A stretch of DNA of 64,000 bases from an uncultured Syntrophobacterales bacterium (GTDB lineage: Bacteria; Desulfobacterota; Binatia; UBA9968; JAJDTQ01): positions 12,100 to 76,099 of the forward strand of contig CAYTMJ010000006.1 in assembly GCA_964438895.1 (NCBI GenBank), given 5' to 3'. The translations under genes were made by a program, and so were the position numbers. Shown in pieces: positions 1,198-22,320 of this stretch (positions are counted from its first letter, which is position 1; every line of letters starts with the position of its first letter). The notes under the pieces are model-generated. The model did no database searches. It had not been told where the DNA came from and saw only the letters and a list, made by a program, of their open reading frames with translations.

Positions 1198-2232
1198 TTA
1201 GAATGCCGGAGCTACATACCGGCTGAAGCGTTCCATGGACGCGAGCACTTTCTGCTGTTCAAGGCCACCGAAGTGAAAACAGAGCCCGATATGGGTAGGG
1301 CCCACTACATCCCTTATGAGCCTGAGATGTTCGATGCAAGTTTCAGGCCCACCAAAGACGGCACGGCTATCTTGTACCATGGCATCGTAAGCGAGGCGCT
1401 CGTAGATCTTTGGCACCATGGGCGCCCGAGCAGGATCCAGTCGGACCTCGTCCAACGCGAACTCGCGCCAGCGGTGCCAGGCCTCCTCCACGTCCACCCT
1501 CGCCTGGCGGTCGTCCTCGCCGACGTACGCAGGGTACATAACGAACACGTCGTGGTCATCCTCGGAGTACCCCGCTTCACGTAGGCTTTTAAGATAGACT
1601 TCGATACGAGGCCGCTGCTCGGGGTTACTACCAATCCACGGCAACGTCATCAGGTGATAGCCGTTGCGCCCGATCATGCGAAAGTTGTCCAAGTCCCGAT
1701 TAGCCGGCACGTAGATGGGGGGATGTGGATGCTGAACCGGCCGCGGCCGCACGGTCACACCGTGGTAATTGAAATACTCCCCCTCCCACTCCACCATCTC
1801 CTCGGTCCAAGCCATACGGATAACATCCAGGGCCTCAACGAGACGAGGTTGCGCAGTATTCCAATCCCATCCGTACACCGCGTACTCGTCGGCGCTCATT
1901 CCCCGACCGGCGCCGAACAACAGTCTCCCCTGAGAGAGAAGATCGAGCATGGCGTAGTCCTCGGCGATCTGGAGAGGGTGGTGCATGGGCACCAGCGACA
2001 CAGCGGAACCGAGCATGAGTCGGCGCGTCCGCTGTGAGGCGGCGGACAGAAGTAACTGGGGATTAGGCATCATACCACCGAAAGGCCGGAAGTGATGCTC
2101 GGTGACCCATAGGCTATCAAACCGCATGTCTTCGGCGGCGTCAATCTGCTCTAGCCAGCGAGCGTAGAGCTCCTGCGAATCTCCATCCAGATCTGGAACA
2201 TAGGTATTAAGCAGATAGTATCCGAACTTCAT
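1198..2232 (-). CDS. LLM-class (luciferase-like) flavin-dependent oxidoreductase
   Basis: The 344-aa product begins MKFGYYLLNTY... and shows the TIM-barrel LLM pattern. Start ATG at 2232 preceded by GAAGGA. The ATGA overlap with the upstream ThrC-like gene indicates translational coupling. Confidence 0.75.
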   Translation of the reverse strand: MKFGYYLLNTYVPDLDGDSQELYARWLEQIDAAEDMRFDSLWVTEHHFRPFGGMMPNPQLLLSAASQRTRRLMLGSAVSLVPMHHPLQIAEDYAMLDLLSQGRLLFGAGRGMSADEYAVYGWDWNTAQPRLVEALDVIRMAWTEEMVEWEGEYFNYHGVTVRPRPVQHPHPPIYVPANRDLDNFRMIGRNGYHLMTLPWIGSNPEQRPRIEVYLKSLREAGYSEDDHDVFVMYPAYVGEDDRQARVDVEEAWHRWREFALDEVRLDPARAPMVPKIYERLAYDAMVQDSRAVFGGPETCIEHLRLIRDVVGPTHIGLCFHFGGLEQQKVLASMERFSRYVAPAF

Positions 2233-3503
2233 GACGGTCCTTCGCTTTCGGAATTGTCCGATGCCGTTGTCCACGTCGTGTTTCTCAGCCTTTCCTTCAG
2301 TGCACCAAGGTTCGGCGCAACAATCTGCAGTTGTTCCGGTGGTACATCCACACTGGCCGACTGCTTTAAACCGTGGCCTGTAACATTACACACGACCATG
2401 TCATCAGCCCCAATCACGCCTTGCCGGCGAAGCTGCGCAGCCGCAGCTAGGGACGCAGCGCCGGACGGCTCCGCGAAGACGCCAGCCATGCGACTCAGAA
2501 GCCCCTGGGCCTCGAGTATTTCGTCGTCCCCCAGGGCCACACCTGTCCCATTACTGGCGCGCACTGCCCGCAGCGCTCGTAACCCCAACGCCTTGGGGTT
2601 ACCTACCCGAATGCTCTCGGCCACCGTGACGCCCGCTGTCACCGGTTCCACCATGGCACTGTCACCTTGCAGCGCCGCAACGATGGGGGCCGCGGCATCG
2701 CTCTGCGCTGCAACCAGCCTGGGAAAGCGATGTACCCAGCCGAGACCATGCAACTCCTGATACCCCTTCCACATCGCCACAAGGCCCGCCCCTCCAGCAG
2801 TGGGGTGGACGATCCAATTGGGTACGTGTTCATCCAGTTGATCAAACAGCTCGTAAGCGTACGACTTCTTTCCTTCATTCCGATACGGGTTCGTCGAAAG
2901 GCAATCGTACCAGCCGAATTCCCGGACCGCATCGCGATAAAAAGAGCCGATGTCGTCTAGACTCCCCTCTACCATCACCACTTCCGCACCGTAGGCGCAC
3001 GCTTGGACCACTTTAGCCATATCAGTAGCCGCCGGCACCATGACAACGCTCCGCAAGCCTGCGATGGCAGCATAAGCGGCCACCGATGCTGCTGCGTTGC
3101 CGGTGGACGGCACCGCTACGGTATCAAAACCCAGTTCTACAGCACGGGAGATACCCACACAGTTGCTGCGATCCTTGAGAGAGCCCGTGGGCAGCAGCGT
3201 ATCATTCTTGAGATAGAGCCGTTCCATGCCCAAGTGTTTGCCGAGGCGCAGGCAACGGATGAGAGGTGTGTAGCCCTCACCCAGCGACACCACTGAACTG
3301 CGGCTCTTCACCGGAAAGAAGTCGAACCAACGCCAGAGAGTGGGCTCGCCCTTGACTCGAATGCTGCGTAGATCCGAGCGAGTGAGGTACCCGAGGTCCA
3401 TACGAACCTCCAGCACGCTACTACAGGCGCCGCACGCAAACGTGTCTTCGGTCACCGCCTCCCAGCCACACTGCGGACAGCACAACGCAGCGATTGTACC
3501 CAT
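2229..3503 (-). CDS. Threonine synthase-like PLP-dependent enzyme (fold type II) with an N-terminal Cys4 zinc ribbon
   Basis: N-terminal CPQCGW...CGAC zinc ribbon, a TGSLKDR PLP-lysine motif, a glycine-rich loop, 424 aa. The gene sits 8 nt downstream of the FAD/Fe-S oxidase gene. Confidence 0.7.
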   Translation of the reverse strand: MGTIAALCCPQCGWEAVTEDTFACGACSSVLEVRMDLGYLTRSDLRSIRVKGEPTLWRWFDFFPVKSRSSVVSLGEGYTPLIRCLRLGKHLGMERLYLKNDTLLPTGSLKDRSNCVGISRAVELGFDTVAVPSTGNAAASVAAYAAIAGLRSVVMVPAATDMAKVVQACAYGAEVVMVEGSLDDIGSFYRDAVREFGWYDCLSTNPYRNEGKKSYAYELFDQLDEHVPNWIVHPTAGGAGLVAMWKGYQELHGLGWVHRFPRLVAAQSDAAAPIVAALQGDSAMVEPVTAGVTVAESIRVGNPKALGLRALRAVRASNGTGVALGDDEILEAQGLLSRMAGVFAEPSGAASLAAAAQLRRQGVIGADDMVVCNVTGHGLKQSASVDVPPEQLQIVAPNLGALKERLRNTTWTTASDNSESEGPS

Positions 3504-3510
3504 GACGGCC

Positions 3511-6397
3511 TCAGGCCTCGGCTTCCCGGATATCTTCCAACAACACCTCTACAGGATGGGCCGCCCGGCGCCCGGTGAGGTGTTCAATTTGCTGCCGGCA
3601 GGAGATTCCTGAAGCTACTACGCGCGCGCCCTGGGGCGCAGCTTCCACCGCCGGCACTAGGCGCCGAGCCGCGATTGCCACAGATACGTCATAGTGCTCC
3701 TTCTCGAAGCCGAATGAGCCAGCCATTCCACAACAGCCGGAGTCTATCTCGCGAACCTCGTGGCCCGCCTCCCGTAGTACCGACACGGTGGGCCCCATGC
3801 CCACCAAAGCCTTCTGATGACAATGACCGTGCAATACCACCGGCGGTCGGCTGCCGTTCTTCAGTGACCCCGCAGCGTTCTCTCGCATCAAAAACTCTTC
3901 AATTAGGAACGTCTGCCCTGCTACCACACGCGCCGCCTCGTTACGTAAAAGATCAGGATACTCGTCTCGAAGCGTGAGAATGCAGGATGGCTCCAACCCC
4001 ACCACGGGCACCCCCTGTTCCACATAGGGTAGGAGTTCATTCACGTTCCAGGTAGCGTGCTCCTTAGCGTCCCTTAGCATGCCCTTGGAGATCATGGGGC
4101 GGCCGCAACAACGTCGAGGAACAGTTAATACCCGGTAGTTGAAGTGCTCTAGGAGGCGGGTAGCCGCAACCGCCACTTCCGGCGTATTGTAGGTGTTAAA
4201 GGTATCGTGGAACAGGATCACCGATCCACGGGCACCAGTCCCCGTCGGCTCGTGCCTGTTCCACCATGCCTCGAAGTTGTTTCGCGCAAAGCTCGGCAAC
4301 GGCCGCCTCCGGTCGATGCCCAAGAAGCGGTCCATGATCCAGCGGTGGGCGAAATTGTCGTTGACCCGGTTCACCAGTGGCGCCAGCCACGATCCCCAAC
4401 GGCTCAGGGCACCGATGCGGCCGAATAGGCGACTTCGGAGCGAAACACCGTGAACCTGCTGGTAGTGATGCAGAAACTCATACTTGAGCTTGGCCATGTC
4501 GACGTTGGAGGGACATTCGGCCTTGCAGCCCTTGCACTCGAGGCATAGATCCAAAACCTTATGGAGCCGCTCCCCAGTGAACTCGGAGCGCGGGACTTTG
4601 CCCGATAACACCGCGCGAAAGGCGGAAGCCCGTCCGCGAGTGGAGTGCTCCTCCTCCAGCGTAGCCATGTAGGAAGGACACATAGTGCCGCCGAGGGTTT
4701 TACGGCAGGCACCTGTGCCGTTACACATCTCCACCGCGGCCACAAAGCCCCCCTGGTCACCGAAGTCTAGCATAGTCTCAGGTTCCCAGGTCTTGTATGA
4801 GGTGCCATAGCGCAACGAATCGGTCATGGGTGGTGCGTCCACGATCTTGCCCGGATTTAGAAGATTGTAGGGATCGAACAGACGCTTGACCTTGCGAAAC
4901 TCCTGGTACAACTCCGGTCCGAAGAGCTTCTCATTCAGGTGGCTCCGAGCCAGACCATCGCCGTGCTCTCCAGACATGGCCCCCCCGAACTCCATCACCA
5001 GATCGGAGATCTCACGGGAGATGTGTGTCATCTTTTCGACCTCGCCCACCTCCTTGAGGTTGATAAATGGGCGTATGTGCATGCACCCCACCGAACAATG
5101 GCCATAATAACCAGCCCGGACGCCGTAGCTCTCTAGGATCTTACGGAACCGTTTGATGAACTGAGGCAGTTTCACCGGATCCACGGCGGTGTCCTCAACG
5201 AAGGCAATAGGTTTCTTTTCTCCTTTAACGCCCAGCAAGAGCCCCAAGCCGGCTTTGCGTAGACCCCAGATCCCCTGCACCTCCCGCGGCTCGTAGGCAA
5301 GAGAGGCAGCATAGCCCATGCGCTCGCGCTTCCGTAGAACTTCCAACCTGCCAACCTTGCTCCGAACCTCCTCGGCGGTGTCTCCATCGTACTCCACCAT
5401 GAGCAACGCGTCGGGGTCTCCCTGTACGAAGCCTAGTCGCTTGGACTGTTCCATGTTCTCGCGGGCTAAATCGAGAATGGGCTTATCGGTGAGCTCCATC
5501 GCGTAGGGGCTGGTGGCGAGAATTGCTTCGGACACCGCCAAAGCGTCTTGAAGGTCGTGGAAGTGAATCACATCGAGTGCAGTGTGCTTAGGCTTGGGCA
5601 CCAACCGCATTTTCGCTTCCACTACACAGGCGAGCGTACCCTCGGAACCCACGATCAGGCGCGAAAGATTGAACGGCTGGTCCTTGGCGAACTCGTCCAA
5701 ATTGTAGCCTGAGACCCGCCGCATAAGCTTAGGATAGCGCTCCGCGATGAGGCCTTTCGCAGACTCGATTAACGGCGGCAGGTGCTGATAGATTTGACTC
5801 TCGAGCCCCTTCCCCGTCTGGCTAGGCGCCAACGAACCATCTGGGAGATCCCGTAGAACCGCCTCGCTCCCATCCGCCAAGAGAACCGTTAGCTCCAGCA
5901 CGTGATCAAGGGTCTTGCCATAGACGATAGAATGGGCACCAGCCGAATTGTTGCCAATCATTCCGCCAATAGTAGCCCTGTTCGAGGTTGAGGTATCGGG
6001 GCCAAACAACATGCCCATAGGTGCCACGCGGGCATTCAGCGCATCCTGAACGAGCCCCGGCTGCACGCGGGCCCAAAGTGCATCTGCGTTTACCTCCAGC
6101 ACGCGGTTCATGTACTTCGAGAAGTCAATGACGATGGCGTGGCCCACAGTCTGGCCCGCCAGCGAGGTACCGCCGCCTCGGGCCAGTACCGGCACGCGAT
6201 GCCGATTAGCCACCTCAATGACCGCCTGGACATCCCCTTTGTGACGGGGAATCACCACGCCTACTGGGTCGATCTGGTACATAGACGCGTCCGTCGCGTA
6301 CAGTAGCCGTGAGTAGGAATCGAACCGGACCTCTCCCTCCACTCTCTTGCGGAGTTCGTTTTCAGTTTCCCGGTAATCATGTAGGCCTTCACGCACC
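3511..6397 (-). CDS. Fused FAD-binding (GlcD-like) and Fe-S/CCG-domain (GlcF-like) 2-hydroxyacid oxidoreductase, Dld-II type D-lactate/glycolate dehydrogenase-like
   Basis: N-terminal FAD-binding PCMH domain (GGGTSLAGQ). C-terminal 4Fe-4S ferredoxin cysteine clusters (CLECKGCKAECPS) and two CCG-like cysteine motifs. The ORF track starts at a TTG at 6420. The ATG at 6397 with a GGGAGG Shine-Dalgarno is more plausible. Confidence 0.8.
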
Positions 6398-6706
6398 ATA
6401 GAAAACCTCCCTCGCAGCAACCCTATCTGAATCGGGCGGGTCGACGTTCAAGTCCCAGCCGCGACGATCCTACCAAGTCGATGGGCCAAATTACTTGACC
6501 GCAAATTTGCGGCTTGCAACCCCCACTCGATGCGCCCACGTCCCTAGTGATTATTGGAGTCGGGACCGGCGTAAACGGTCTGACAATGAACCGTGGGTCC
6601 TCCGATTTGCAAGTCGCCAGTTGTCAATTGTGGCAACTGCTCCGTATACCGCAAGCATTTTGGATGCCGAAACGGGCGTGCACGCCCCACAACACACGAC
6701 CACTTC

Positions 6707-7462: not shown

Positions 7463-7758
7463 CTTAGGGAGGGTAGCAACGGTTACAGTTGAGTGTAACG
7501 GAGCACCGCAAATGATTTGTTGAAACGCTGGTGCCAGTTTAACGGGTTGGGTAGATTCTGAGCACTTAGTTTTCTAAAGAAAACATCAGGTAGACAGCGG
7601 TTCACAGACGTTCGTCCTGGATTTCCCATGGGTTTTATACCCCCCCGCACTTCGCCGATGCCGCGTTGGTTGGCATGGCGTGCATACGTAAATCCACCAA
7701 AGCACGCTCCTTGTCCTTCCTGATAAATACCCCACCACCTCCCACTGGAAAACCGACC

Positions 7759-7788
7759 TTGACGTGTCCGAGCGAGTTTTGCTATACC
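7759..7788 (+). promoter_or_regulatory. Candidate sigma70-type promoter for the frdA-like operon: TTGACG, 18-nt spacer, TATACC
   Basis: Hexamers read at 7759-7764 and 7783-7788, about 55 nt upstream of the GTG start at 7844. Confidence 0.3.
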
Positions 7789-7843
7789 CCTCGAAAACGC
7801 AGGAAAAACTTCTAGTCTACTCGCTGAAAAAAGGGGATTGCCA

Positions 7844-9457
7844 GTGCCGCAATATGATGTTCTCGTTATTGGTGGCGGCGCATCCGGTCTACGCGCGGCA
7901 ATTGCTGCCAAGCGCGCCGGGGCGTCCGTGGCGGTGCTGAGTAAGGTCCACCCGCTGCGAACCAACTCAGCATTGTCGCCGGGAGGTCTAAACGCGCCGC
8001 TTGGAAATGACGATTCCACGGAAAAGTTTGCCAATGACATCGTCAGGGCTGGCGACGGCCTGTGCAACACCGAAGCAGTGGACATCTTAGCGACGAACGC
8101 GGCCCGGGAGGTCATCTGGCTAGAGCGTGTTGGTGTACCGTTCAATCGTGACACCGAGGGGCGTATCGACTGCCGACCTCTGGGCTCCAGTAGCGTGCAC
8201 CGTGCCGCGTACGCCGACGACCGCACCGGACACACAATCCTCCACGTGCTTCATGAACAGTTCCAAAGAGAGAAGATCCCCTGTTTCGGGGAGTGGTTCG
8301 CTACTTCCCTGCTCCAAAACGCGGGGGCTTGTACCGGCGCGGTTGCCCTAGGACACCGGAATGGCCAACTCGAGACTTTCAGCGCGGGTGCGGTTATTCT
8401 TGCAACCGGGGGCGCCACTCAGTTGTACCGTCCTTGTACGTCGGCGGTGGGAACGACCGGCGACGGACTGATGCTCGCATATGATATTGGCGTTGGCCTC
8501 GTGGATCTGGAGATGGTGCAGTTTCACCCAACAGTTTACAGCGACACTCGAACCGCGGTCATAAGCGAAGCGACCTTGGGCGAGGGCGCAAAACTCATCA
8601 ACTCGGCAGGCGACACTCTGACGAATTCCGCAGGGCTCTCACGGGCGCAACTGGCTGCAGAGGTGTATAAGGTCGGTCGGAACGGGGGCGGCCCCGTGTC
8701 CCTCGACCTTCGGTCGATCGAGAACCTCGTGTCCCGCTTTCCCGGTGCAGCTGAGGTCGTCAAGATGATGGCCGGGATAGACATCACGAAGAACCCGGTG
8801 CCGGTACAACCGGTGGCACACCGGCCCATGGGTGGAATCGAAACCAACGCCGCCGGAGAGACCTCAGTAGCCGGGCTCTTCGCCGTGGGGGAGTGCGCCC
8901 ACAACGGACTCAATGGCGCGAGCCGCCTTCCGGGCAACACCCTGACTGAGGCGGTTGTTTTCGGCAAACGGATAGGAGAGGCGGCGGCGACTTACGCCAA
9001 GTCAGAGAGCCCCCAAGTAGCGGTGGGATCCCAAGTCGCACAAGACGACAAACGTCTTGCTGAGATCACCTCCGGTGGCCCGTCTAGCGACACCATAGGC
9101 GCCATCCACCGAGAATTGGGCGAGCTCATGACGGCCAACGTAGGCGTGGTGCGCGCGGACGCGGGATTAGCCGAGGCCCAGGATAAGATCCACTCGCTAC
9201 AACAGCGCCATGCCGCGCTTCGCGTCAGTAACACTTCCCGGATCTACAATTACGCGCTTATGGGGTACATTGAACTGGGGAACCTACTCAAGTTGGCTGA
9301 GGCCACGGCCTTGGCGGCCCGGGAGCGCACTGAGAGCCGTGGCGCACATATTCGAAGCGATCATCCGGAGCAAGATGATTCCACCTGGAAGGCACACACC
9401 GTAGTGCGCTTGCAAGATGGTTCACCGAAGCTCGTTACCCGATCGGTGTCGACATAA
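7844..9457 (+). CDS. Fumarate reductase/succinate dehydrogenase-type flavoprotein subunit, predicted non-covalent FAD (FrdA/TfrA/NadB-like)
   Basis: DVLVIGGGASGLRAA Rossmann fold and an FHPT active-site motif. The covalent-FAD histidine of the SHTVAAQGG motif is absent (the sequence reads RTNSALSPGG). GTG start at 7844 after an AAGGGG Shine-Dalgarno. The track's TTG at 7838 is less likely. Confidence 0.75.
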   Translation: MPQYDVLVIGGGASGLRAAIAAKRAGASVAVLSKVHPLRTNSALSPGGLNAPLGNDDSTEKFANDIVRAGDGLCNTEAVDILATNAAREVIWLERVGVPFNRDTEGRIDCRPLGSSSVHRAAYADDRTGHTILHVLHEQFQREKIPCFGEWFATSLLQNAGACTGAVALGHRNGQLETFSAGAVILATGGATQLYRPCTSAVGTTGDGLMLAYDIGVGLVDLEMVQFHPTVYSDTRTAVISEATLGEGAKLINSAGDTLTNSAGLSRAQLAAEVYKVGRNGGGPVSLDLRSIENLVSRFPGAAEVVKMMAGIDITKNPVPVQPVAHRPMGGIETNAAGETSVAGLFAVGECAHNGLNGASRLPGNTLTEAVVFGKRIGEAAATYAKSESPQVAVGSQVAQDDKRLAEITSGGPSSDTIGAIHRELGELMTANVGVVRADAGLAEAQDKIHSLQQRHAALRVSNTSRIYNYALMGYIELGNLLKLAEATALAARERTESRGAHIRSDHPEQDDSTWKAHTVVRLQDGSPKLVTRSVST

Positions 9458-9513
9458 GAGCGGGTATCACAACACCGCGAACGCCGACGAAAAGCGCCGA
9501 CTAAGGAGAAACC

Positions 9514-10470
9514 ATGGAAGTTACCTTCAAAGTTCATCGCAAAGACCCGGAAAACGGTGGTGAATCGAGTTATTCCACCTACCAGGTGGATCTGCCCGAG
9601 GATGCCACGGTGCTGGAGGGGCTGCAGAAGATTCGAGACGAGCAGGATGACACCCTAGCCTTCCGCGCTTCGTGTTGCCAGGGCACTTGCGGCGAGTGTG
9701 CAGTGCGGATCAATTATAAAGCGCAGTTCACTTGTACTGCCAGAATTGGCGCAGTCACAAAAAAAGCTCCTGAAATCTTATTGGATCCAGTGCGCAACAT
9801 CCCGGTCGTCAAGGATCTAGTTTTCGATATGGACGCTTTCACCTGGAATAAAATGAGCGCCATGAAGCCCTGGATGGAGCCAGACGATGAATTCGCGGTC
9901 ACTGAGAACCTAGTCCCCGAAGCAGAGATGGCGGAAGTGCGCAAGACCATGAGCTGCCACCAGTGTGGCCTATGCGATGAAGGCTGCGCGGTACTGCCAG
10001 TGAATTTCGATTTTCTAGGCCCCGCCGCTATGGTAAAGGGCTACCGCTTCGTAATGGACCCTCGGGAAACAGGGGCAAGGATGGATGCCCGCATGAAGGT
10101 GGTGGAACAACCACAGGGACTCTGGGACTGCGTACACTGCTACGAGGCTAACGGAAAGTGTCCGCGTGGGCTAGCCCCTTCCAGCAAGATCATGGAGATA
10201 CGGGATGTGGCCTTCAAGGAAGGCATCAAAAACCAGAAGGTGGGACGGCATCACGCAAGCTTCATAAACTCGGTGAAGCGAACCGGATGGCTCGATGAAC
10301 GCAAGTTGGCCATGGAGACCGAGGGAATTACCAATATAGCGGGACTAATGAAGCTCTTACCCACTGCAGTGCGCGCGTTACGCCGAGGGAAAATGCCCGG
10401 CCGTCACGAGAAACGCCCGGGGGCTGAACAGATTAAACGCATTCTCGAGAAAGCGGAGGACTCCAAGTGA
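9514..10470 (+). CDS. FrdB/SdhB-like iron-sulfur subunit (2Fe-2S plus 4Fe-4S) with a C-terminal extension
   Basis: CCQGTCGECAVRIN 2Fe-2S motif plus CHQCGLCDEGC and CxxC...CP ferredoxin motifs. 318 aa. Strong Shine-Dalgarno AAGGAGA. Confidence 0.8.
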   Translation: MEVTFKVHRKDPENGGESSYSTYQVDLPEDATVLEGLQKIRDEQDDTLAFRASCCQGTCGECAVRINYKAQFTCTARIGAVTKKAPEILLDPVRNIPVVKDLVFDMDAFTWNKMSAMKPWMEPDDEFAVTENLVPEAEMAEVRKTMSCHQCGLCDEGCAVLPVNFDFLGPAAMVKGYRFVMDPRETGARMDARMKVVEQPQGLWDCVHCYEANGKCPRGLAPSSKIMEIRDVAFKEGIKNQKVGRHHASFINSVKRTGWLDERKLAMETEGITNIAGLMKLLPTAVRALRRGKMPGRHEKRPGAEQIKRILEKAEDSK

Positions 10471-11345
10471 AATATGCGTTCTACCCCGGATGTGTGGCCA
10501 AAGGCGGTTGCCCCGAACTCTACTCCGCAGCCGTAAAGGTGGCCAAGAAGCTCGACATTGAGCTTGAAGAGATGCCTGACGTCGCATGTACTGGCGCCGG
10601 TTGCATGCCGACACACCTCTCGGATCCCATTAACGCTCGGACGTTCGCCAAAGCGGAGCAGATGGGGCTACCCATAATGACCATTTGCAGCACCTGCCAG
10701 GGCGTCTTCAGCCAAGCTAACGACCGGCTTCAAGATGCCGAATACCGAGAAGAGATTAACCGCGAGTACCTAGCCGAGGAGGGGCTATCCTACAAGGGAA
10801 CTACCGACGTCAAGCACTTGCTGTGGGTGCTGTTCGAGGACTATGGAATCGAAAAGCTCAAGTCGCTGATCGAGCGCCCCCTCAACGGCCTCAAGGTATC
10901 ACCGTTCTACGGCTGCTTCCTCCGTCGCCCCGGAAACATTATGGTACCCAACGCGGACGTGGGCGGACGCCGGGGCTATCTGGAGGACCTAATCGGCATG
11001 CTGGGAGCGGAGAACGTCGACATAAGCGGCAAAACCAAGTGCTGTGGCTTCCCTATCCTTACAGCCAACGAGGAAGCCTCCCTGGGCATGGTGGCCAAGC
11101 ACACCGGCGAGTCCCGGGATAACGGGGCCGACTGCATGGTGACCCCATGTCCATTGTGTCATCTGAACCTCGACGGAAATCAGCCGAGGGCCGAGGGACA
11201 GAAAGGCGAGAAAATCGACTTGCCGATAATGCATCTGCCGCAGCTCGTTGGCCTGGCATTGGGATTCGACACTGAAGAGATGCAACTCGGACGCCATATC
11301 GTTTCGACCAAGGCTGTCAACGACAAGGTCGACATGCTCACATAG
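10467..11345 (+). CDS. HdrB/SdhE-like cysteine-rich (CCG domain) subunit
   Basis: Two CCG-type motifs (CTGAGCMPTH... and ...CCGFPILTANEE...CPLCHLN). The GTG start overlaps the upstream stop (GTGA). Confidence 0.75.
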   Translation: MKYAFYPGCVAKGGCPELYSAAVKVAKKLDIELEEMPDVACTGAGCMPTHLSDPINARTFAKAEQMGLPIMTICSTCQGVFSQANDRLQDAEYREEINREYLAEEGLSYKGTTDVKHLLWVLFEDYGIEKLKSLIERPLNGLKVSPFYGCFLRRPGNIMVPNADVGGRRGYLEDLIGMLGAENVDISGKTKCCGFPILTANEEASLGMVAKHTGESRDNGADCMVTPCPLCHLNLDGNQPRAEGQKGEKIDLPIMHLPQLVGLALGFDTEEMQLGRHIVSTKAVNDKVDMLT

Positions 11346-11349
11346 AGAA

Positions 11350-11553
11350 ATGGGCAACCAGAAAGATAAGCCCAATCCCGTCAACTTAGCCCGGGAACTC
11401 CTGAAGTTCCGGAAGGCACAGCTTCCCTTTGGCTATTACTACGCTGTCAAGGTCCGCCTCGGTCACGCCTGGATCGAGGATGAGACGGCGCTGGCGGAGA
11501 TCATGGACGGCATCAACGAATTGGGTTACGAGGTGGTCAGAAAGCGGCAGTAG
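11350..11553 (+). CDS. Small hypothetical protein (67 aa) downstream of the CCG subunit
   Basis: ATG at 11350 with a weak AGAGAA Shine-Dalgarno. No recognisable motif. The position resembles the small accessory subunits of type-E complex II. Confidence 0.3.
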   Translation: MGNQKDKPNPVNLARELLKFRKAQLPFGYYYAVKVRLGHAWIEDETALAEIMDGINELGYEVVRKRQ

Positions 11554-11565
11554 CGGCCGTCCCGA

Positions 11566-11580
11566 GGTCCCGCCGGGACC
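11566..11580 (+). terminator. Candidate hairpin GGTCCCGCCGGGACC followed by CTTTAGG, between the two complex-II clusters
   Basis: A 6-bp GC stem with a 3-nt loop directly after the small ORF's stop. The T-tract is weak. Confidence 0.2.
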
Positions 11581-11641
11581 CTTTAGGACGCCACCGTCGC
11601 CGCAAAACCCGCGCAAAGAGGAGCGCTAAGAGCACTGAATC

Positions 11642-12400
11642 ATGAGTAGCATAGCAATCGACAGCAAAAGAACTTTGCGGCAGGACCTGTGGTGGGTCGA
11701 ACCCATGCTTGTGGTACTAGGCCTGGGCTGCTTCGCCGCCTACTCGACCTGGGCCGCACTCCAAAACGGTAACTATTATGCGGCGCCATACCTTTCACCC
11801 CTCTACTCGCCGTGCCTCGCTATCAACTGCGAACACGTGACGGTATCCCTGTTCGGCTCATGGTATAATTGGTCTCCCGCAATTCTTATTCTGTGGATAC
11901 CCGGTGGATTTAGGCTAACCTGCTATTACTATCGCAAAGCCTACTATCGGTCCTTCTTCTGGTCACCGCCAGCCTGCGCCGTGAGGGACGCGGCAAAGGA
12001 ATATTCCGGCGAAACTCGCTTCCCATTCATCCTACAAAACATCCACCGATACTTCTTCTGGATGTCCTTACCAATTTTGGCATTCCTCTGGTGGGACGCC
12101 CTAATCGCCTTCAACTTCGGCGGCAGCTTCGGTGTTGGTCTGGGTACGCTGATTCTAATCGGTAACGCCACGTTGCTATCCCTCTACAGCTTTTCCTGTC
12201 ACTCGTGCCGGCACCTATGCGGTGGAGGCCTAAACAGCTTCCAGGCCGCGGCCGGACGCTACAAGCTCTGGGGCATCGTGACAAAGCTCAACGAAAAGCA
12301 CATGCAAATCGCCTGGATCAGTCTCGTGTGGGTAGGCTTGACCGACGTGTACGTCCGGCTGTTGGCTACCGGCGTCCTACAGGACTTGAGGTTTATCTGA
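11642..12400 (+). CDS. Integral membrane protein, probable membrane anchor (SdhC-like) of the downstream succinate dehydrogenase
   Basis: 252 aa with multiple hydrophobic helices. Its stop overlaps the sdhA ATG (ATGA). It resembles the single-subunit anchors of actinobacterial/Gram-positive-type Sdh operons. Confidence 0.5.
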   Translation: MSSIAIDSKRTLRQDLWWVEPMLVVLGLGCFAAYSTWAALQNGNYYAAPYLSPLYSPCLAINCEHVTVSLFGSWYNWSPAILILWIPGGFRLTCYYYRKAYYRSFFWSPPACAVRDAAKEYSGETRFPFILQNIHRYFFWMSLPILAFLWWDALIAFNFGGSFGVGLGTLILIGNATLLSLYSFSCHSCRHLCGGGLNSFQAAAGRYKLWGIVTKLNEKHMQIAWISLVWVGLTDVYVRLLATGVLQDLRFI

Positions 12401-14202
12401 TGGCCCGCGAGAGCTACGAGACGCACGCGTACGACGTGGTAGTTGTGGGAGCCGGCGGAGCGGGGTTGCGAGCGGGGATTGAGGCTCATGGAAAGGGTGC
12501 CAAGACGGCTATCATCTGCAAATCGCTGCTGGGCAAAGCGCACACTGTGATGGCCGAGGGCGGTATCGCTGCCGCCATGGGCAATGTGTGGCCCGAGGAC
12601 AACTGGAAGGTGCATTTCCGGGACACCATGCGGGGCGGCAAGCTGCTGAACAACTGGCGTATGGCACAGATCCATGCACAGCAGGCGCCGGAACGGGTAC
12701 TAGAATTGGAGGAATGGGGAGCGCTATTCGACCGCACCAACGAAGGCTTGATCTCGCAACGCGATTTCGGTGGCCATCGCTACGCCCGCTTAGCGCACGT
12801 GGGGGATCGTACCGGTCTAGAAATGATCCGTACCCTGCAGCAGCGGGCCGTGGCACTCGGCATCGACGTATATATGGAGTGCAACATCCAGCACCTATTG
12901 ATGAGTGATGGCAGGGTGAGTGGGGTTGTAGGTTACTGGCGCGAGAGCGGTGAACTAATCGTGTTCAACTGCAAGGCAGTGGTGCTAGCCACCGGGGGTT
13001 CCGGGAAGTGCTGGCAAGTGAGTTCCAACTCCTGGGAATACAGTGGAGACGGTATGGGCATGGCGATGGAGGTGGGAGCCGATCTCATCGACATGGAGAA
13101 GGTTCAGTTCCATCCCACCGGCATGGTCTGGCCTCCCAGCGTCCGTGGCATCTTAGTTACGGAGGGGGTTCGCGGTGATGGCGGGACACTACTGAACTCC
13201 GAGGGCGACCGTTTCATGTTCAATTACGTGTCGGAGTTCTTCAAGGCAGAAACCGCCGACAACGAGACTGAAGCGGATGCTTGGTACCAGGATAAGAAAA
13301 ACAACCGTCGGACCCCGGACCTGCTACCGCGAGACGAGGTAGCCCGAGCCATCAACGCAGAGGTCAAGGCCGGCCGTGGTACCGAGCACGGCGGCGTGCT
13401 GCTGGACATCGCAAATCGCCGCGATGCGGAATATATCAAGCGGCGGCTTCCTTCCATGTACCACCAGTTCAAGGAGCTAGCGGACGTCGATATTACCAAA
13501 GAAGCCATGGAGGTGGGGCCCACTTGTCACTACATAATGGGAGGGATCCGGGTAAACGCGGACACTTCCGCGACCACAGTGCCGGGGCTCTATGCCGCGG
13601 GCGAAGTGGCGGGAGGGTTGCACGGCGCCAACCGGCTCGGTGGCAACTCCCTGTCTGACCTGCTGGTGTTCGGATGTATCGCCGGTGCCTCGGCGGCGGA
13701 CCATGCCCTAGGAGTCGAGGCCGTAGCAGCGCCCGACACGGTAGAGTTGGACCGGCTCACGGGCTTCATGCTGGAACCTTTCACAGATCGTGGAAACGAG
13801 AACCCCTACGCGATTCACAGTGATCTTCAGCGCACCATGCACAACCTTGTCGGTATCATCCGCACTGAGAGTGAAATGCTGACCGCGCTGGAGGAAATTG
13901 CGGTGTACAAGGACCGGGCGGCGCACGTGAAAGTCGAAGGTGGCCGGCGTTTTAACCCCGGTTGGCACTTGGCGCTGGATTTGAGGTCACTCCTGGCGGT
14001 TGCAGAAGCTGCCACCCTTTCAGCCCTCGAGTGCAAGGAAAGTCGAGGCGGACACACCCGCGATGACTATCCCGACCCCGACCCCAAGTACGGAACCGTG
14101 AACGTGGTGACGCGTGCGCACAACGGGACCGCCTCTGTTTCCCTCGAGCCCCTACCGGCAATGCCTGAGGAGCTCAAGAAAATAGTTGAGGAGCAATTTT
14201 AA
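12400..14202 (+). CDS. sdhA: Succinate dehydrogenase/fumarate reductase flavoprotein subunit (covalent-FAD type)
   Basis: DVVVVGAGGAGLRAG Rossmann fold, AHTVMAEGG (histidine for covalent FAD), HPTG, HGANRLGGNSL. 600 aa. Confidence 0.9.
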   Translation: MARESYETHAYDVVVVGAGGAGLRAGIEAHGKGAKTAIICKSLLGKAHTVMAEGGIAAAMGNVWPEDNWKVHFRDTMRGGKLLNNWRMAQIHAQQAPERVLELEEWGALFDRTNEGLISQRDFGGHRYARLAHVGDRTGLEMIRTLQQRAVALGIDVYMECNIQHLLMSDGRVSGVVGYWRESGELIVFNCKAVVLATGGSGKCWQVSSNSWEYSGDGMGMAMEVGADLIDMEKVQFHPTGMVWPPSVRGILVTEGVRGDGGTLLNSEGDRFMFNYVSEFFKAETADNETEADAWYQDKKNNRRTPDLLPRDEVARAINAEVKAGRGTEHGGVLLDIANRRDAEYIKRRLPSMYHQFKELADVDITKEAMEVGPTCHYIMGGIRVNADTSATTVPGLYAAGEVAGGLHGANRLGGNSLSDLLVFGCIAGASAADHALGVEAVAAPDTVELDRLTGFMLEPFTDRGNENPYAIHSDLQRTMHNLVGIIRTESEMLTALEEIAVYKDRAAHVKVEGGRRFNPGWHLALDLRSLLAVAEAATLSALECKESRGGHTRDDYPDPDPKYGTVNVVTRAHNGTASVSLEPLPAMPEELKKIVEEQF

Positions 14203-14978
14203 TGCCTGAAGAAACCAATACGGTAAGCGGCGGGGAGGCAAAGATGCGCGTCTGGCGTGGCGACGCCAGCGGCGGAGAATTCAGGGACTACACCATGCCG
14301 CTCCAGGAGGGCATGGTTGTGCTAGACGTGATCCACAATATACAGGCTACGCACGCCGGTGACCTCGCCGTACGCTGGAACTGTAAGGCCGGAAAATGCG
14401 GGTCTTGCAGTGCCGAAGTCAACGGCAAACCGCGACTCATGTGCATGACTCGCATGAACACGTTCGGACCCGACGAGACCATCACCGTAGCACCCATCAA
14501 GACCTTCCCCCTGATTCGCGACCTCGTAACCGACGTATCCTACAACTACGAAAAGGCCAGAAGCATACCCCCCTTCAAGCCTAAGCCCAAGGAGGCCGAC
14601 GGAACTCGACGTATGTACCAAAAGGACGTCGACCGGGCACAAGAGTTCCACAAATGCATCGAATGTTTCCTGTGCCAGGACGTCTGTCACGTCATCCGGG
14701 ACCACAACGATAACAAGCCGAACTTCGCCGGACCGCGTTTTTTCGTTCGGGTAGCAGGTCTTGAGATGCACCCACTGGACACCGACGACCGTCTGGAGTT
14801 CCTGCGTAATGAAGCCGGGCTAGGCTTCTGCAACATCACCAAGTGCTGCACCGACGTTTGCCCGGAGAACATCAAGATCACCGATAACTCAATTATCCCC
14901 ATGAAAGAACGGGTGGTGACGCGGTTCTACGACCCAATCGCGCGGCTACTCGGGGCACTGGGCGGGAAGCGGTCCTGA
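14202..14978 (+). CDS. sdhB: Succinate dehydrogenase iron-sulfur subunit
   Basis: CKAGKCGSCSAEVNG (2Fe-2S), CIECFLCQDVC and CTDVCP (4Fe-4S and 3Fe-4S). The TAATG overlap with sdhA indicates coupling. Confidence 0.9.
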   Translation: MPEETNTVSGGEAKMRVWRGDASGGEFRDYTMPLQEGMVVLDVIHNIQATHAGDLAVRWNCKAGKCGSCSAEVNGKPRLMCMTRMNTFGPDETITVAPIKTFPLIRDLVTDVSYNYEKARSIPPFKPKPKEADGTRRMYQKDVDRAQEFHKCIECFLCQDVCHVIRDHNDNKPNFAGPRFFVRVAGLEMHPLDTDDRLEFLRNEAGLGFCNITKCCTDVCPENIKITDNSIIPMKERVVTRFYDPIARLLGALGGKRS

Positions 14979-15800: not shown

Positions 15801-16631
15801 ATGACGATTCCTGACCTCGAAGCTATAGCCAAGGAAATTAGAGTCGACGTAATCCGCATGCTAGTGGAGGCAGGTTCCGGACACCCCGGTGGATCACTAT
15901 CGTGCACAGACATGGTGACGGCGCTGTACTTTCACGAGATGAATCACCGTTCAGATCAGCCAAACTGGACCGATCGCGACCGTTTCGTGCTCTCAAAGGG
16001 CCATTGCGTGCCCACAGTGTACGCCGCCCTCGCTAGGGCCGGCTACTTCCCGCCAGAGGAACTGCTTAGCCTGAGAAAACTCAACAGTCGGATACAGGGA
16101 CACCCCGACCGCCATCGCTTCCCATACGTAGAGGCCTCTACCGGCTCCCTTGGACAAGGGTTGTCAGTGGCACTGGGAATGGCACTATCGGGTAAGGTTA
16201 GCGACCAGGGATTCCGTGTATACTGCGTCATCAGCGATGGTGAATGTCAGGCCGGCCAGATCTGGGAGGCAGCCATGGCCGCACCTAGATTCCAGCTCGA
16301 CAACCTCTGCGTACTAATGGACTACAATCATATACAGTTGAGCGGCGAGGTGGACGAAATTATGAGCCTGGAACCACTGCTAGACAAGTGGCGCGCCTTC
16401 AACTGGAACACCCTGGAGATCAACGGTCACGACTTTTCCGCCATTCTCGACGCGCTAAAGATAGCAAAAGAACATCGCGGCGGCCCCACTATGATTGTTT
16501 GCCAGACCGTTAAGGGTAAGGGAGTCAGCTTTATGGAGAATCGCTGGGAGTGGCACGGGAAAGCCCCCAGCCGCGAAGAAGGCGACCTAGCGATTTCCGA
16601 GATTGTCAACGGTGCACCGCCAACCTCCTAA
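15801..16631 (+). CDS. Transketolase, N-terminal (TPP-binding) subunit of a split transketolase
   Basis: GHPGGSLS, DRDRFVLSKGH and GDGE...E motifs of the transketolase PP domain. 276 aa. Confidence 0.85.
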   Translation: MTIPDLEAIAKEIRVDVIRMLVEAGSGHPGGSLSCTDMVTALYFHEMNHRSDQPNWTDRDRFVLSKGHCVPTVYAALARAGYFPPEELLSLRKLNSRIQGHPDRHRFPYVEASTGSLGQGLSVALGMALSGKVSDQGFRVYCVISDGECQAGQIWEAAMAAPRFQLDNLCVLMDYNHIQLSGEVDEIMSLEPLLDKWRAFNWNTLEINGHDFSAILDALKIAKEHRGGPTMIVCQTVKGKGVSFMENRWEWHGKAPSREEGDLAISEIVNGAPPTS

Positions 16632-16648
16632 GCGAAAGGAAACAGTAC

Positions 16649-17572
16649 ATGAGCGCAATTGCGACACGTGTGACCTTTGGCGAGACCGTTGCCCGACTTG
16701 CCAACACCAATCGGGACATCGTTGTGCTCGACGCAGACCTCCGAAAATCCACCATGACGGATGAGTTTTCTCGTAAGCACCCCGACCGGTTTTTTGACGT
16801 AGGCATCGCCGAGGGCAACATGGTAGGTGTAGGCGCCGGCATGGCCCTAACTGGCAAGATCCCTTTCATCTGCAGCTTCGCATGCTTCGTAGTCGGCCGC
16901 TTTGAGCAGATTCGCATGGCAGTGGCGTACAACCGTGCTAACGTAAAGATTGTCGGAACCCATTCCGGCATTGGAATTGGGGAAGATGGTTACAGCCAGA
17001 TGGCGACCGAAGACATCGGCCTCATGCGTACCCTACCCAACATCGCCGTAGTACAGCCCGCTGACCCCGTCGAGACCCGTGGTGCGGTGGAATATATCAC
17101 CCAACACGACGGTCCGGTGTTCCTCCGTCTCACCCGCCAGAAGGTGATCGACGTCAATGACCAGACCTATGAGTTTCAGTTTGGCAAAGCCGTGGTGTTG
17201 CGAGAGGGCTCAGACGTGTCACTCCTGGGAACCGGTGCCGTGATGGAGAACGTCCTAAAAGCTGCCGACCAACTGGTCTCCCAAGGCATCAGTGTGCAGG
17301 TGGCCAACATTCACACTATCAAACCCCTCGATACCGAATTCATCGAGTCGATTGCTACGAGCCACGGCAGGATAGTGACCGTCGAGGACCACGGTATCTC
17401 CGGTGGCCTCGGCAGCGCCGTGGCCGAAACCGTGGCCGAACTTGGACTCGGTCGGGTTCGTCGCGTCGGCGTCACTGACTTTGCTGAATCGGGAGACACT
17501 GAGGGACTTTACGAGAAGTACGGACTATCCTCTAAACGCATCAGTGCGGCGGCAATGGATTTGATGAAGTAG
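16649..17572 (+). CDS. Transketolase, C-terminal (pyrimidine-binding) subunit
   Basis: ATG at 16649 after a GAAAGGAAAC Shine-Dalgarno. FGIAEGNMVG motif and the C-terminal domain of the split transketolase. Confidence 0.85.
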   Translation: MSAIATRVTFGETVARLANTNRDIVVLDADLRKSTMTDEFSRKHPDRFFDVGIAEGNMVGVGAGMALTGKIPFICSFACFVVGRFEQIRMAVAYNRANVKIVGTHSGIGIGEDGYSQMATEDIGLMRTLPNIAVVQPADPVETRGAVEYITQHDGPVFLRLTRQKVIDVNDQTYEFQFGKAVVLREGSDVSLLGTGAVMENVLKAADQLVSQGISVQVANIHTIKPLDTEFIESIATSHGRIVTVEDHGISGGLGSAVAETVAELGLGRVRRVGVTDFAESGDTEGLYEKYGLSSKRISAAAMDLMK

Positions 17573-20261: not shown

Positions 20262-22310
20262 TTAGACTAGGAGCGGTGCGATGACTAACGAAACCACTGA
20301 CATGAGCTTAATCAGGATGTTCATTGACGGTCCGGAGGTATCCTTCAAGGGATCACCAACAGTATCACCGACCACGGCCGCCTTGTGTGCTTCGCCACCC
20401 TTCTGCTCGTTCTCAAGATCACCGCGCTCGATAAATTTCTTGGCGTTGTCCCAAGCGCCACCAGCGTTAGACATGAAGAGCGCTAACAACACGCCCGAAA
20501 CCATCGCCCCGGCTAGTGTCCCACCCAAAGCCACCGGGCCCAGCGTTAACCCCACAACCACCGGCACAATCACCGCCACCAGCCCAGGCAACACCATCTC
20601 CTTGATAGCCGCGCGGGTAGAAATGTCCACGCAACTCGCTGCGTCGGGCTTGACCCCCTCGCGACCTTCCAGCAACCCGGGGATCTCACGGAACTGCCGG
20701 CGTATCTCGTCAATCATTCGTCCGGCTGCCCTCCCCACCGCGGTCATAGTCATGGCTCCAATGAGATACGGAATCAGGCCACCAATGAACAGGCCCACCA
20801 CTACCTCCGGGGAGGTCACCAGGATCTGAATCGGTTCTCGCCCCACCGCTGCTAGCTCGGTGTCCACCGTTCTCGTGTAGGCCGAGAATAGCGCCAATGC
20901 AGTCAACGCCGCCGACCCGATCGCAAAACCTTTGCCAATAGCCGCCGTAGTATTGCCCAACGAGTCGAGCCCGTCAGTGATCTTCCTCACCTCGGGACCC
21001 AAACCGCACATTTCGGATATACCACCAGCATTGTCAGCGATAGGGCCGTAGGCATCGACACTCATAGTGATACCCACCGTAGCCATCATCGCGACCGCCG
21101 CCATACCGATCCCATAGAGCTGAGCTGCACCGTGGGACACCCAAATGGCGACTGCAATCACCACGACCGGCGCCGCAACGCTCTCTAGACCCACGGCAAG
21201 ACCGTGAATGATGTTGGTGGCGTGACCAGTGCGGCTAGCCTCAGCAATGCGCTCCACCGGCTTTGCGGAAGTGTAGTACTCCGTAATAAGACCAATGAAG
21301 ATGCCACCCAACGAACCCGCAAGTACCGCCCAGAAGACGCCGATGGAAACTCCGTAGGAAAGAATGAGCGCCAGCGCTGCCCCTAGAAATAGTACCGTAG
21401 TAAGGACGGTAGCACCCCGCAATGCCGACTGCGGATCAATCTTCTTGAACACTCGCATGGAATAGATCCCCACCACCGAAGCAATGAGTCCTAATACTGC
21501 TAAGATCAGCGGTAGCGCCATCAATGTGGCCCGCGAAGCTTCTCCGGAGACCGAAAACAATCCAGCTAGCCCGTTAGGTGTAATAGTACTAGCGATAGCG
21601 ATGGATGCAATCACGGAGCCCACATATGACTCGAACAGGTCCGCGCCCATGCCAGCGACGTCGCCGACATTATCCCCGACATTGTCCGCGATCACACCAG
21701 GATTACGCGGATCGTCTTCTGGGATTCCCGCCTCGACTTTGCCTACGAGATCGGAGCCAACGTCCGCGGCCTTAGTGTAGATACCGCCGCCGACGCGGGA
21801 GAACAGTGCGATGGAACTGGCGCCCATAGCGAACCCGCTTATGTACTTAGCGTTCTGTACGTCACCATAGAGCAGAAACAGTACGCCCACACCCAAGAGA
21901 CCAAGGCTTGCGACTGAGAGACCCATCACTGACCCACCGTTAAAGGCCATGAGTAGCGCCGCCGCCTGGCCACTCTCCGCAGCCGCCTGAGAAGTGCGTA
22001 CGTTCGCCCGGGTGGCCGCTTTCATGCCGAGGAAGCCGGCGATAACCGAGCAAATTGCTCCCCCGAAGAACGCTAGAGCGGTGGCGACTCCGAGCTGCCA
22101 TGCCAGTAGCAACGCAACGACCACGACAAACACCGAGAGCACGGTGTACTCACGCCTCAGGAACGCCATGGCCCCCTCGTAAATGGAGTCACTCACGGAC
22201 TGCATTTCCGCATCCTTGACTCCCACTTTGACAATCGAGCGATAGACCCCGTATGCAATGAGTAGTCCAACAGCACCCAGCACGGGAGCCCAGACCGCTA
22301 AACCATCCAT
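20262..22310 (-). CDS. hppA: Membrane-bound H+(or Na+)-translocating pyrophosphatase (V-type PPase)
   Basis: Multi-TM product with conserved GGG..AAD..GDNVGD and DVGADL motifs. ATG at 22310 after a perfect AGGAGGTG Shine-Dalgarno. The ORF-track N-terminal extension is rejected. Confidence 0.9.
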
Positions 22311-22320
22311 AACACCTCCT

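Follow-up and report, generated by a model that had tools for sequence, protein, structure and literature searches.

Do two enzymes of the complex II family that are encoded back to back work in opposite directions, one reducing fumarate and the other oxidizing succinate? The question is raised by a locus at positions 7844-14978 of a 64,000-nucleotide (nt) stretch of DNA from an uncultured Syntrophobacterales bacterium assigned to Binatia (GenBank assembly GCA_964438895.1, contig CAYTMJ010000006.1, positions 12,100 to 76,099), hereafter the window. Here, seven closely packed genes on the + strand encode two different complex II-family enzymes, in the order A1-B1-E1-F1 (cluster 1, encoding enzyme 1) and then C2-A2-B2 (cluster 2, encoding enzyme 2). 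The interpretation that we favor, with a probability of roughly 0.6, is that enzyme 1 is derived from type E complex II and works only as a fumarate reductase, and that it is encoded in one operon with a type F enzyme that oxidizes succinate. The literature on complex II of Binatia and Binatota yielded no relevant description; a survey of Binatota genomes just lists complexes I and II (PMC8262859).

Organization of the locus

The genes and other elements of the locus are the following (protein lengths in amino acids, aa).

7759..7788, + strand: promoter-like element found by comparative alignment (putative function), with -35 TTGACG, an 18-nt spacer and extended -10 TGcTATACC
7844..9457, + strand: A1, flavoprotein of the SdhA/FrdA family (537 aa; Pfam FAD_binding_2 and Succ_DH_flav_C), with Asn replacing the histidine that binds flavin adenine dinucleotide (FAD) covalently
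9514..10470, + strand: B1, Fe-S subunit (318 aa, including a C-terminal extension of ~80 aa; Pfam Fer2_3 and Fer4_8)
10467..11345, + strand: E1, HdrB/SdhE-like CCG-domain subunit (292 aa; Pfam CCG in two stretches)
11350..11553, + strand: F1, orphan subunit (67 aa), a conserved open reading frame (ORF) with no family match
11566..11580, + strand: GC hairpin GGTCCC-GCC-GGGACC, read in the window, within a GC-rich, indel-variable spacer insert
11615..11641, + strand: 3' portion of the spacer that immediately precedes the anchor gene, AAAGAGGAGCGC...GAATC, kept across clade Ia
11642..12400, + strand: C2, type F membrane anchor (252 aa), homolog of SdhC of Mycobacterium smegmatis Sdh1 (PDB 7d6v_C)
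12400..14202, + strand: A2, flavoprotein (600 aa; NF005866) with the covalent-FAD histidine in 'KAHTVMAEGG'
14202..14978, + strand: B2, Fe-S subunit (258 aa; NF009052) with canonical cluster motifs

Both clusters had been outlined in an earlier reading of the same DNA (the original prediction). Its gene coordinates and descriptive statements proved correct, apart from the 'classical' membrane anchor of cluster 2 discussed below, and all the genes that it lists were found on the + strand. The GTG start of A1 at 7844 lies 6-7 nt downstream of AAAGGGGA and agrees with the 537-aa gene call of P0001 (97% identical); the alignments described here used a 539-aa translation of A1 that begins at a TTG codon. 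The gap between A1 and B1 is 56 nt, B1 and E1 overlap in GTGA, F1 begins 4 nt past the stop codon of E1, and the genes of cluster 2 overlap by 1 nt each, at the junctions TGATG (C2/A2) and TAATG (A2/B2). Such a gene set is not a product of chance, because about 50 related genome loci share it.

Loss of the FAD-linking histidine in A1

The top NCBIfam match of A1 is sdhA_frdA_Gneg (464 bits), and the protein stays below the cut-off of every curated model. The loss of the covalent-FAD histidine, already claimed in the original prediction, was confirmed by alignments to FrdA of Escherichia coli and to two His-bearing flavoproteins. When 'HPLRTNSALSPGG' of A1 is aligned to 'YPMRSHTVAAEGG' of E. 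coli FrdA, the position of this histidine is not His, and the comparison of 'SKVHPLRTNSALSPGG' with 'SKVYPMRSHTVAAEGG' identifies the replacement as His44 to Asn; the same column holds His in A2 and in the E. coli-type FrdA of a related locus. No other known FAD-linking residue was found at the site. The residues that bind fumarate or succinate and those that transfer protons are all retained in A1 (equivalents of H232, T/S244-E245, R287, H355, and R390). With Asn in this place, A1 would be expected to bind FAD non-covalently. The original prediction took such binding to be typical of fumarate reductases, which holds for the soluble ones and for the 8-methylmenaquinol:fumarate reductase (MFR), but not for the membrane-bound quinol:fumarate reductases (QFRs), which carry covalent FAD (PMC2680327).

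The N-terminus of A1, 'MPQYDVLVIGGG', leads straight into the Rossmann fold, with no N-terminal extension and no Tat (twin-arginine) motif. A scan for hydrophobic 19-residue segments found no transmembrane (TM) segment in A1, B1, E1 or F1, and several in C2. Domain content, the missing FAD-linking His and this negative scan all agree with the earlier description of cluster 1 as encoding a type E-like, peripheral enzyme composed of a flavoprotein, an Fe-S protein and a CCG-domain protein.

Another variable position of A1 is residue 48 in the 539-aa translation (window ~7979-7981, 'SALSPGG'), the equivalent of Glu49 of FrdA and Gln50 of SdhA, which has been linked to catalytic bias. This residue is Pro in the closest relatives of the window, Gln in most other Asn-type proteins, and Glu, as in FrdA, in A2 and in the FrdA of related loci.

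Two groups of related loci

The set of loci used for comparison consisted of 80 retrieved relatives of E1 in species-representative genomes. The closest of these (~90% identity) come from metagenome-assembled genomes of uncultured 'Candidatus Binatia', and those with 62-67% identity include other Binatia and Dehalococcoidia. The seven proteins of the window were placed on the 80 loci by tblastn, and the FAD-site motif was then read for each flavoprotein, which yielded two groups. Group I comprises 51 sequences, namely, the window and 50 genome loci, with at least 48% identity to A1 and the FAD-site motif 'HPLR[TS]N', Asn being present in all 51. Group II consists of 27 loci of other Binatia and of Dehalococcoidia/Chloroflexota, in which the identity to A1 is 42-46% and the motif is 'HPLRSH[ST]', with His at the site. 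The two groups also differ in the gene that follows the CCG gene: this is a homolog of F1 in the window and in 49 of the 50 loci of the Asn type (50 of 51 gene sets) compared to none of the 27 His-type loci, where an unrelated gene occupies the position (a 408-aa ORF in locus L054). In metagenomes, 1317 homologs exist; 117 of the 120 best metagenome homologs are N-terminally complete, and all 117 carry Asn.

In a neighbor-joining tree of the flavoproteins (Kimura distances, 200 bootstraps) that has A2 and FrdA as the root, group I forms a monophyletic clade (200/200) and is the sister of the Binatia part of group II (193/200), nested within His-bearing lineages. The simplest reading of this topology is a single change from His to Asn, together with the gain of F1, in the ancestor of group I, and group II looks like ordinary SQR (succinate:quinone reductase) of type E. 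In 2009, the FAD-linking histidine was described as conserved in all succinate:quinone oxidoreductases (SQORs) except for the epsilonproteobacterial MFR (PMC2680327). Because the nearest relatives of A1 bear His in this tree, which includes no MFR sequence, the loss in A1 very probably occurred independently of that in MFR. The locus would then document a second loss of this residue, in a type E-derived enzyme that faces the cytoplasm. The loss is fixed across a widespread clade of uncultured Binatia from soil, groundwater and host-associated habitats and is accompanied there by the acquisition of F1. The His-bearing and Asn-bearing sister clades form a natural pair for the study of flavinylation and catalytic direction.

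The orphan subunit F1

F1 matched no Pfam or NCBIfam family and no PDB sequence. A word search returned only 21 matches, and when 1.84 billion representative proteins were searched exhaustively with a profile, only 2 clusters at E<1e-10 and no family outside the group I clade were retrieved. Given the 20 residues that are invariant across 16 sequences and the pattern of substitutions by codon position (403/178/775), we conclude from sequence conservation that F1 is a real protein-coding gene. The AlphaFold2 model of F1 built from the 16-sequence alignment is unreliable (predicted local distance difference test, 52; predicted template modeling score, 0.28).

Fe-S and CCG subunits and comparison with known enzymes

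B1 is about 80 aa longer than B2, and its best NCBIfam matches, both below the cut-off, are the long SdhB/FrdB models NF009227 and NF009226. In the motif of its third cluster, CVHCYEANGKCP (residues 205-216, window 10126-10161), positions 1, 4, and 11 are Cys, and the canonical position 7, where porcine SdhB has a Cys of the 3Fe-4S cluster, is Ala; the candidates for this third cluster in B1 are 3Fe-4S and 4Fe-4S with a non-Cys ligand. The C-terminal extension contains a conserved amphipathic stretch, in which 'GLMKLLPTA' is kept. In E1, the C-terminal CCG motif is complete, and the N-terminal one reads 'CTGAG' rather than 'CCG'; ten Cys are conserved, with Cys15 counted in. The best NCBIfam match of E1 is MFR_anch_SdhE (198 bits), followed by HdrB TIGR03288 (183 bits), both below the cut-off, and in PDB it matches HdrB (8rvu_b, E 3e-45). 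The features of the B1 motif and the 'CTGAG' of E1 are common to the Asn-type group I and the His-type group II.

Enzyme 1 resembles type E SQR (SdhABEF of Sulfolobus and Acidianus; SdhABE of cyanobacteria and Nitrospina), which is likewise peripheral, has no haem or TM anchor, and contains a CCG-domain subunit, SdhE. In type E enzymes, SdhB is extended and its third-cluster motif contains an additional Cys, and the archaeal enzymes have a small fourth subunit (PMC2754724, PMC3578206). SdhA of type E is described as binding FAD covalently (PMC2754724), whereas the histidine is lost in A1. The type E SdhB motif is CxxCxxCxxxCP, with a second 4Fe-4S cluster in place of 3Fe-4S, whereas B1 combines the extra Cys at position 4 with Ala at position 7. 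Type E SdhE has two CCG domains, a ten-cysteine motif, and no TM helix; E1 has two CCG stretches, the N-terminal one with the altered motif, ten conserved Cys, and no TM segment. The type E SdhABEF includes a small second 'anchor' subunit, SdhF; cluster 1 has the 67-aa F1, which is without a detectable homolog outside its clade.

Among characterized enzymes, the one nearest to enzyme 1 in function is the MFR of Wolinella succinogenes and Campylobacter jejuni (MfrABE), a type E SdhABE in which His is replaced with Ala86, FAD is bound non-covalently, and fumarate reduction is driven by methylmenaquinol, with no detectable succinate oxidation (PMC2680327). Both consist of a flavoprotein without the FAD-linking His, a long Fe-S subunit and a CCG subunit, without TM helices, and the model that E1 matches best is the one for SdhE of MFR. 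However, MFR is periplasmic and has a Tat signal on an N-terminal extension of ~40 aa, neither of which is found in A1; its histidine is replaced with Ala rather than Asn; and it lacks a small fourth subunit, in contrast to cluster 1 with F1. The MFR models NF042982, NF042952, and NF042965 score 342, 142, and 198 bits, below the respective cut-offs of 1100, 600, and 500, the first pair being the values for A1 on the MFR SdhA model. Because of the lack of Tat export, the extra subunit, the scores far below the cut-offs and the very probably independent loss of His, we do not place enzyme 1 in the MFR family. What cluster 1 encodes is a new variant of type E/MFR-like complex II, clade-wide and lineage-specific, that is cytoplasmic, has Asn at the FAD site and includes an orphan subunit.

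Cluster 2 encodes a type F complex II

The only PDB homolog of C2 is the SdhC chain of Sdh1 from M. smegmatis (7d6v_C; E 1.4e-68, residues 9-252, full length); no Pfam or NCBIfam model matched it, including those for the anchor families of the cytochrome b type (SdhC/SdhD, FrdC). In the Sdh1 anchor, a membrane-embedded Rieske-type 2Fe-2S cluster coordinated by His-C155 and His-C240 takes the place of haem b (PMC8054011). C2 keeps both ligands, in 'QNIHRYF' and 'LNEKHM', respectively, as well as the motif 'SCHSCRH'. A2 scores 998 bits on NF005866 (cut-off 819) and B2 448 bits on NF009052 (cut-off 256); the Cys positions of 'CNITKCCTDVCP' in B2 are canonical, and the covalent-FAD histidine of A2 was read in the AHTV motif where the original prediction had placed it. 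Given the homology between C2 and 7d6v_C, the conservation of both His ligands and the scores of A2 and B2 above the equivalog cut-offs, we assign cluster 2 to class F complex II (defined in PMC10238741), with an enzyme like the mycobacterial Sdh1. The anchor that was initially described as classical is thus a type F anchor of the Rieske-type 2Fe-2S kind, and a classical complex II anchored by haem b (types A-C) was rejected, since the type F anchor matches C2 and no anchor family does.

Sdh1 of M. smegmatis and M. tuberculosis (type F, PDB 7D6V) has the same three subunits as enzyme 2 and an anchor homologous over the full length. Cluster 2 differs in belonging to Binatia rather than Actinobacteria and in its location behind a type E-derived enzyme, probably in one operon. 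Type F complex II, a drug target in mycobacteria, therefore reaches beyond them.

Exchange of the partner complex II

Partners of cluster 1 were counted in the loci with at least 3 kb of downstream sequence, 42 in group I and 25 in group II, the counts being phylogenetically non-independent. A complex II with covalent FAD follows F1 in 31-33 of the 42 group I loci compared to none of the 25 in group II. The partner in group I is a type F cluster in 20 loci and FrdABCD of the E. coli type in 11-13, and 9 loci have neither. FrdABCD (type D), which is not found in this window with its type F partner, takes the position of cluster 2 in at least 13 related loci, occupying the slot downstream of F1 in L012 (11155-14383), L014, L022, L026, and others. 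Its subunits exceed the respective cut-offs (FrdA, 892 versus 854 bits; FrdB, 366 versus 333; FrdD, 69 versus 60), and the FrdA carries 'YPMRSHTVSAEGG'.

In the tree, loci with the type D partner are found inside the type F clade (L012, L014, and L022), and one with the type F partner inside the type D clade (L037). Because the two kinds of partner are nested in each other's clades, the partner complex II has been swapped in place, between type F and type D, at least twice. Synteny is otherwise conserved, from a GlcD-like/CCG fusion through UDG, cluster 1, the partner, and SDR to a split transketolase. For genome annotation, 'complex II' in Binatia can stand for up to three mechanistically different enzymes, and the Asn-type enzyme is not to be counted as a succinate dehydrogenase (SDH).

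Loci with the FrdABCD partner (L026, L039-L046, and L049) share a conserved motif, 'CTTGACAC(C)', in the spacer between F1 and FrdA, shortly upstream of FrdA. This motif, possibly the -35 element of an internal promoter or a regulator site, is missing from the type F loci of clade Ia.

A single transcription unit is likely

The promoter-like element at 7759-7788 lies about 55 nt upstream of the A1 start and is unique within the window. In an alignment of 19 upstream regions (the window and 18 relatives of clade Ia), TTGACG-18 nt-TGcTATACC is nearly invariant and the flanks diverge; the element is found in 17 of the 18 relatives, with L004 deviating in the -35 part. A generic sigma-70 scan reported no promoter on the + strand, missing this element because its -10 ends in C. 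At 7463-7843, no FNR or CRP boxes were detected with up to 2 mismatches, and hence there is no sequence hint of regulation by oxygen in this region. No comparable conserved block was found between the two clusters.

The GC hairpin at 11566-11580 is present exactly as first described, and it was suggested at that time to separate the transcripts of the clusters. Such a role is left unsupported by several observations: the hairpin lacks a T-run, the spacer between F1 and C2 folds no better than shuffled sequence (z = -0.6), the hairpin is not found in relatives, and in two of these (L003 and L006) the F1 ORF runs on to an ATGA overlap with the start of the anchor gene. Relatives without the hairpin include those with short spacers (a gap of 37-40 nt between F1 and the anchor gene, 7 relatives). 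An intrinsic terminator was rejected on the same grounds of a missing T-run, folding and conservation, and the hairpin was not called by a terminator scan. It is not repeated elsewhere in the window. The GC-rich insert that contains it is ~50-80 nt long and differs by indels among relatives; the F1 and anchor genes may have overlapped ancestrally and then been truncated or separated by this insert.

A conserved stretch with AAAGGAG precedes the anchor start by 16-20 nt (window 11615-11641; L003:11058-11114; L006:11053-11109), too distant for normal Shine-Dalgarno spacing. In L006, the bases homologous to 11615-11641 encode the C-terminal tail of F1, whose ORF overlaps the anchor start (ATGA).

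The junctions of the locus (GTGA, 4 nt, 1 nt, and 1 nt), the ATGA overlaps in L003 and L006 and the spacers of 37-40 nt in 7 relatives are typical of an operon, and the conserved promoter-like block is found only upstream of cluster 1. For these reasons, the seven genes are likely to be transcribed as one unit from the 7759-7788 element, a unit that the hairpin may modulate at most.

Catalytic directions of the two enzymes

In the mechanism that we propose, enzyme 1 faces the cytoplasm and is presumably held on the membrane surface by E1 and the amphipathic C-terminal extension of B1. Electrons would most likely be drawn from a low-potential quinol and pass through E1 and the Fe-S chain of B1 to fumarate at A1. 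By analogy with MFR, enzyme 1 would thus be a dedicated fumarate reductase, working on the cytoplasmic side, and enzyme 2, with its covalent FAD and membrane Rieske-type 2Fe-2S anchor, would oxidize succinate with quinone as the acceptor. The restriction of enzyme 1 to fumarate reduction is suggested because a non-covalently bound flavin is too low in potential to oxidize succinate, as was shown for the natural MFR and for E. coli FrdA and yeast SDH with a mutated His; the E. coli QFR and yeast SQR carrying such mutations are assembled, but their FAD is non-covalent and succinate oxidation is lost (PMC2680327). A division of labor between fumarate reduction and succinate oxidation is therefore plausible.

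Several observations weigh against this interpretation. Opposite directions are harder to reconcile with the likely co-transcription, because two such enzymes that share a quinone pool would form a futile cycle, so that post-transcriptional control or different donors or quinones must be assumed. At least 13 relatives have FrdABCD of the E. coli type as the neighbor, which is nominally a fumarate reductase itself; a simple pairing of forward and reverse enzymes would require FrdABCD to function as the SDH there. In 9 group I loci, there is no adjacent partner. MFR in which His was restored binds FAD covalently and still does not oxidize succinate (PMC2680327), and therefore the state of this residue alone does not set the direction. 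Finally, with one canonical Cys of the third cluster missing from B1 and the N-terminal CCG motif of E1 incomplete, electrons may take another path than in the characterized type E enzymes.

One alternative is that the two enzymes form a functional pair, either as a fumarate/succinate shuttle, in which enzyme 1 would use a cytoplasmic donor and the partner would re-oxidize succinate into the quinone pool, or through physical association. Such a pair is favored by the coupling of the clusters in relatives, which is translational or nearly so, by the single conserved promoter-like element, by the retention of the partner slot although its occupant changed between type F and type D at least twice, and by the restriction of the adjacency to the Asn clade. 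The 9 Asn-type loci that do without an adjacent partner speak against it, as does the association of F1 with cluster 1 and not with the partner. Adjacency may also reflect nothing but co-regulation of tricarboxylic acid cycle genes, with the counts being phylogenetically non-independent. We regard this explanation as rather unlikely.

Enzyme 1 could also be a bacterial, split version of the thiol:fumarate reductase (Tfr), soluble and independent of quinone, in which a pair of thiols would be oxidized at E1 and the electrons would reach A1 via B1. Tfr of Methanothermobacter (TfrAB) is indeed comparable as a soluble or peripheral enzyme in which a fumarate-reducing flavoprotein is combined with HdrB-like CCG domains and an Fe-S module. 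E1 resembles HdrB and SdhE of MFR to about the same degree (183 bits, with PDB 8rvu_b at 3e-45, and 198 bits, respectively), no TM helices are present in A1, B1, E1, or F1, and a non-quinone donor would remove the problem of the futile cycle. The specific resemblance to Tfr is nevertheless low: A1 scores 356 bits on the TfrA model (cut-off 718), less than A2 with 523 bits, B1 scores 124 bits on the TfrB model (cut-off 385), and E1 only 26 bits on the latter, in which the Fe-S and CCG modules are fused rather than encoded by separate genes as in B1 and E1. The disulfide chemistry of HdrB uses two complete non-cubane cluster sites, whereas the N-terminal CCG motif of E1 is degenerate. Moreover, the His-bearing sister clade shares the features of B1 and E1 and looks like ordinary type E SQR, and the thiol substrates of Tfr are the methanogen cofactors CoM-SH and CoB-SH, which would not be expected in Binatia. 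A thiol:fumarate reductase is thus an improbable identity for enzyme 1. We hold out similarly little prospect for a scheme in which the Asn-type enzyme would be quinol-independent and would receive electrons at its HdrB-like subunit from a cytoplasmic donor, be it a thiol/disulfide couple or a soluble carrier, possibly recruited by F1, with the partner re-oxidizing succinate; were this the case, the operon would encode a cytoplasm-to-membrane shuttle or an assembly of two complexes II.

A substrate other than fumarate, such as L-aspartate, as in NadB, or another unsaturated or substituted dicarboxylate, seems very doubtful. The predicted non-covalent FAD and the short length of A1 (537 aa) are reminiscent of NadB, no SdhA/FrdA equivalog model gives A1 a score above its cut-off, and FAD_binding_2 enzymes of other specificity exist (bioRxiv 10.1101/2022.01.20.477176). 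Yet A1 keeps all the fumarate-binding and catalytic residues, with equivalents of H232 ('QFHPT'), T/S244-E245, H355 ('VAHRPMGG'), R390 ('GASRLPGN'), and R287 ('LSRAQ'; 'PRD/TRD' among relatives). Grouping of cluster 1 with NadB-type aspartate oxidases, which the original prediction had named as one outcome that would speak against it, was not observed: A1 scores 342 bits on the NadB model TIGR00551 (cut-off 452.75), less than the 464 bits on the SdhA/FrdA subfamily model, and its gene is tightly coupled to those of the Fe-S and CCG subunits. NadB works without dedicated subunits of this kind, whereas B1 and E1 overlap here, and the nearest relatives of A1 are His-bearing, SdhA-like proteins.

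That cluster 1 is a decaying, non-functional duplicate disabled by the loss of a residue otherwise almost universal in SQORs (PMC2680327) is hardly credible, as about 50 species-level genomes contain the ORFs in intact form, at identities down to 48%, the catalytic residues are kept, Asn is fixed, a new conserved subunit has been gained, 1317 homologs exist in metagenomes, and the codon-position bias of F1 is typical of purifying selection; pseudogene status was rejected because of this conservation.

Neighboring genes and overlapping reading frames

Two additional ORFs that overlap the locus are artefacts of high GC content: a 250-aa ORF antisense to A1 (7483-8235, - strand) and a 65-codon upstream extension of A2 inside C2 (12205-12399, + strand). 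Upstream of the locus, in the same synteny block, a conserved gene at 3511-6420 (- strand) encodes a 969-aa protein in which a GlcD-like FAD-linked oxidase is fused to a 4Fe-4S dicluster domain and a CCG domain, which makes it a second CCG-domain redox enzyme near the complex II genes. A luciferase-like monooxygenase is encoded at 1198-2274 (- strand). Directly downstream of the locus lies the SDR gene, followed at 15801-17572 (+ strand) by a split transketolase, with the N- and C-terminal halves encoded by separate genes, and a membrane H+-pyrophosphatase is encoded at 20262-22409 (- strand).

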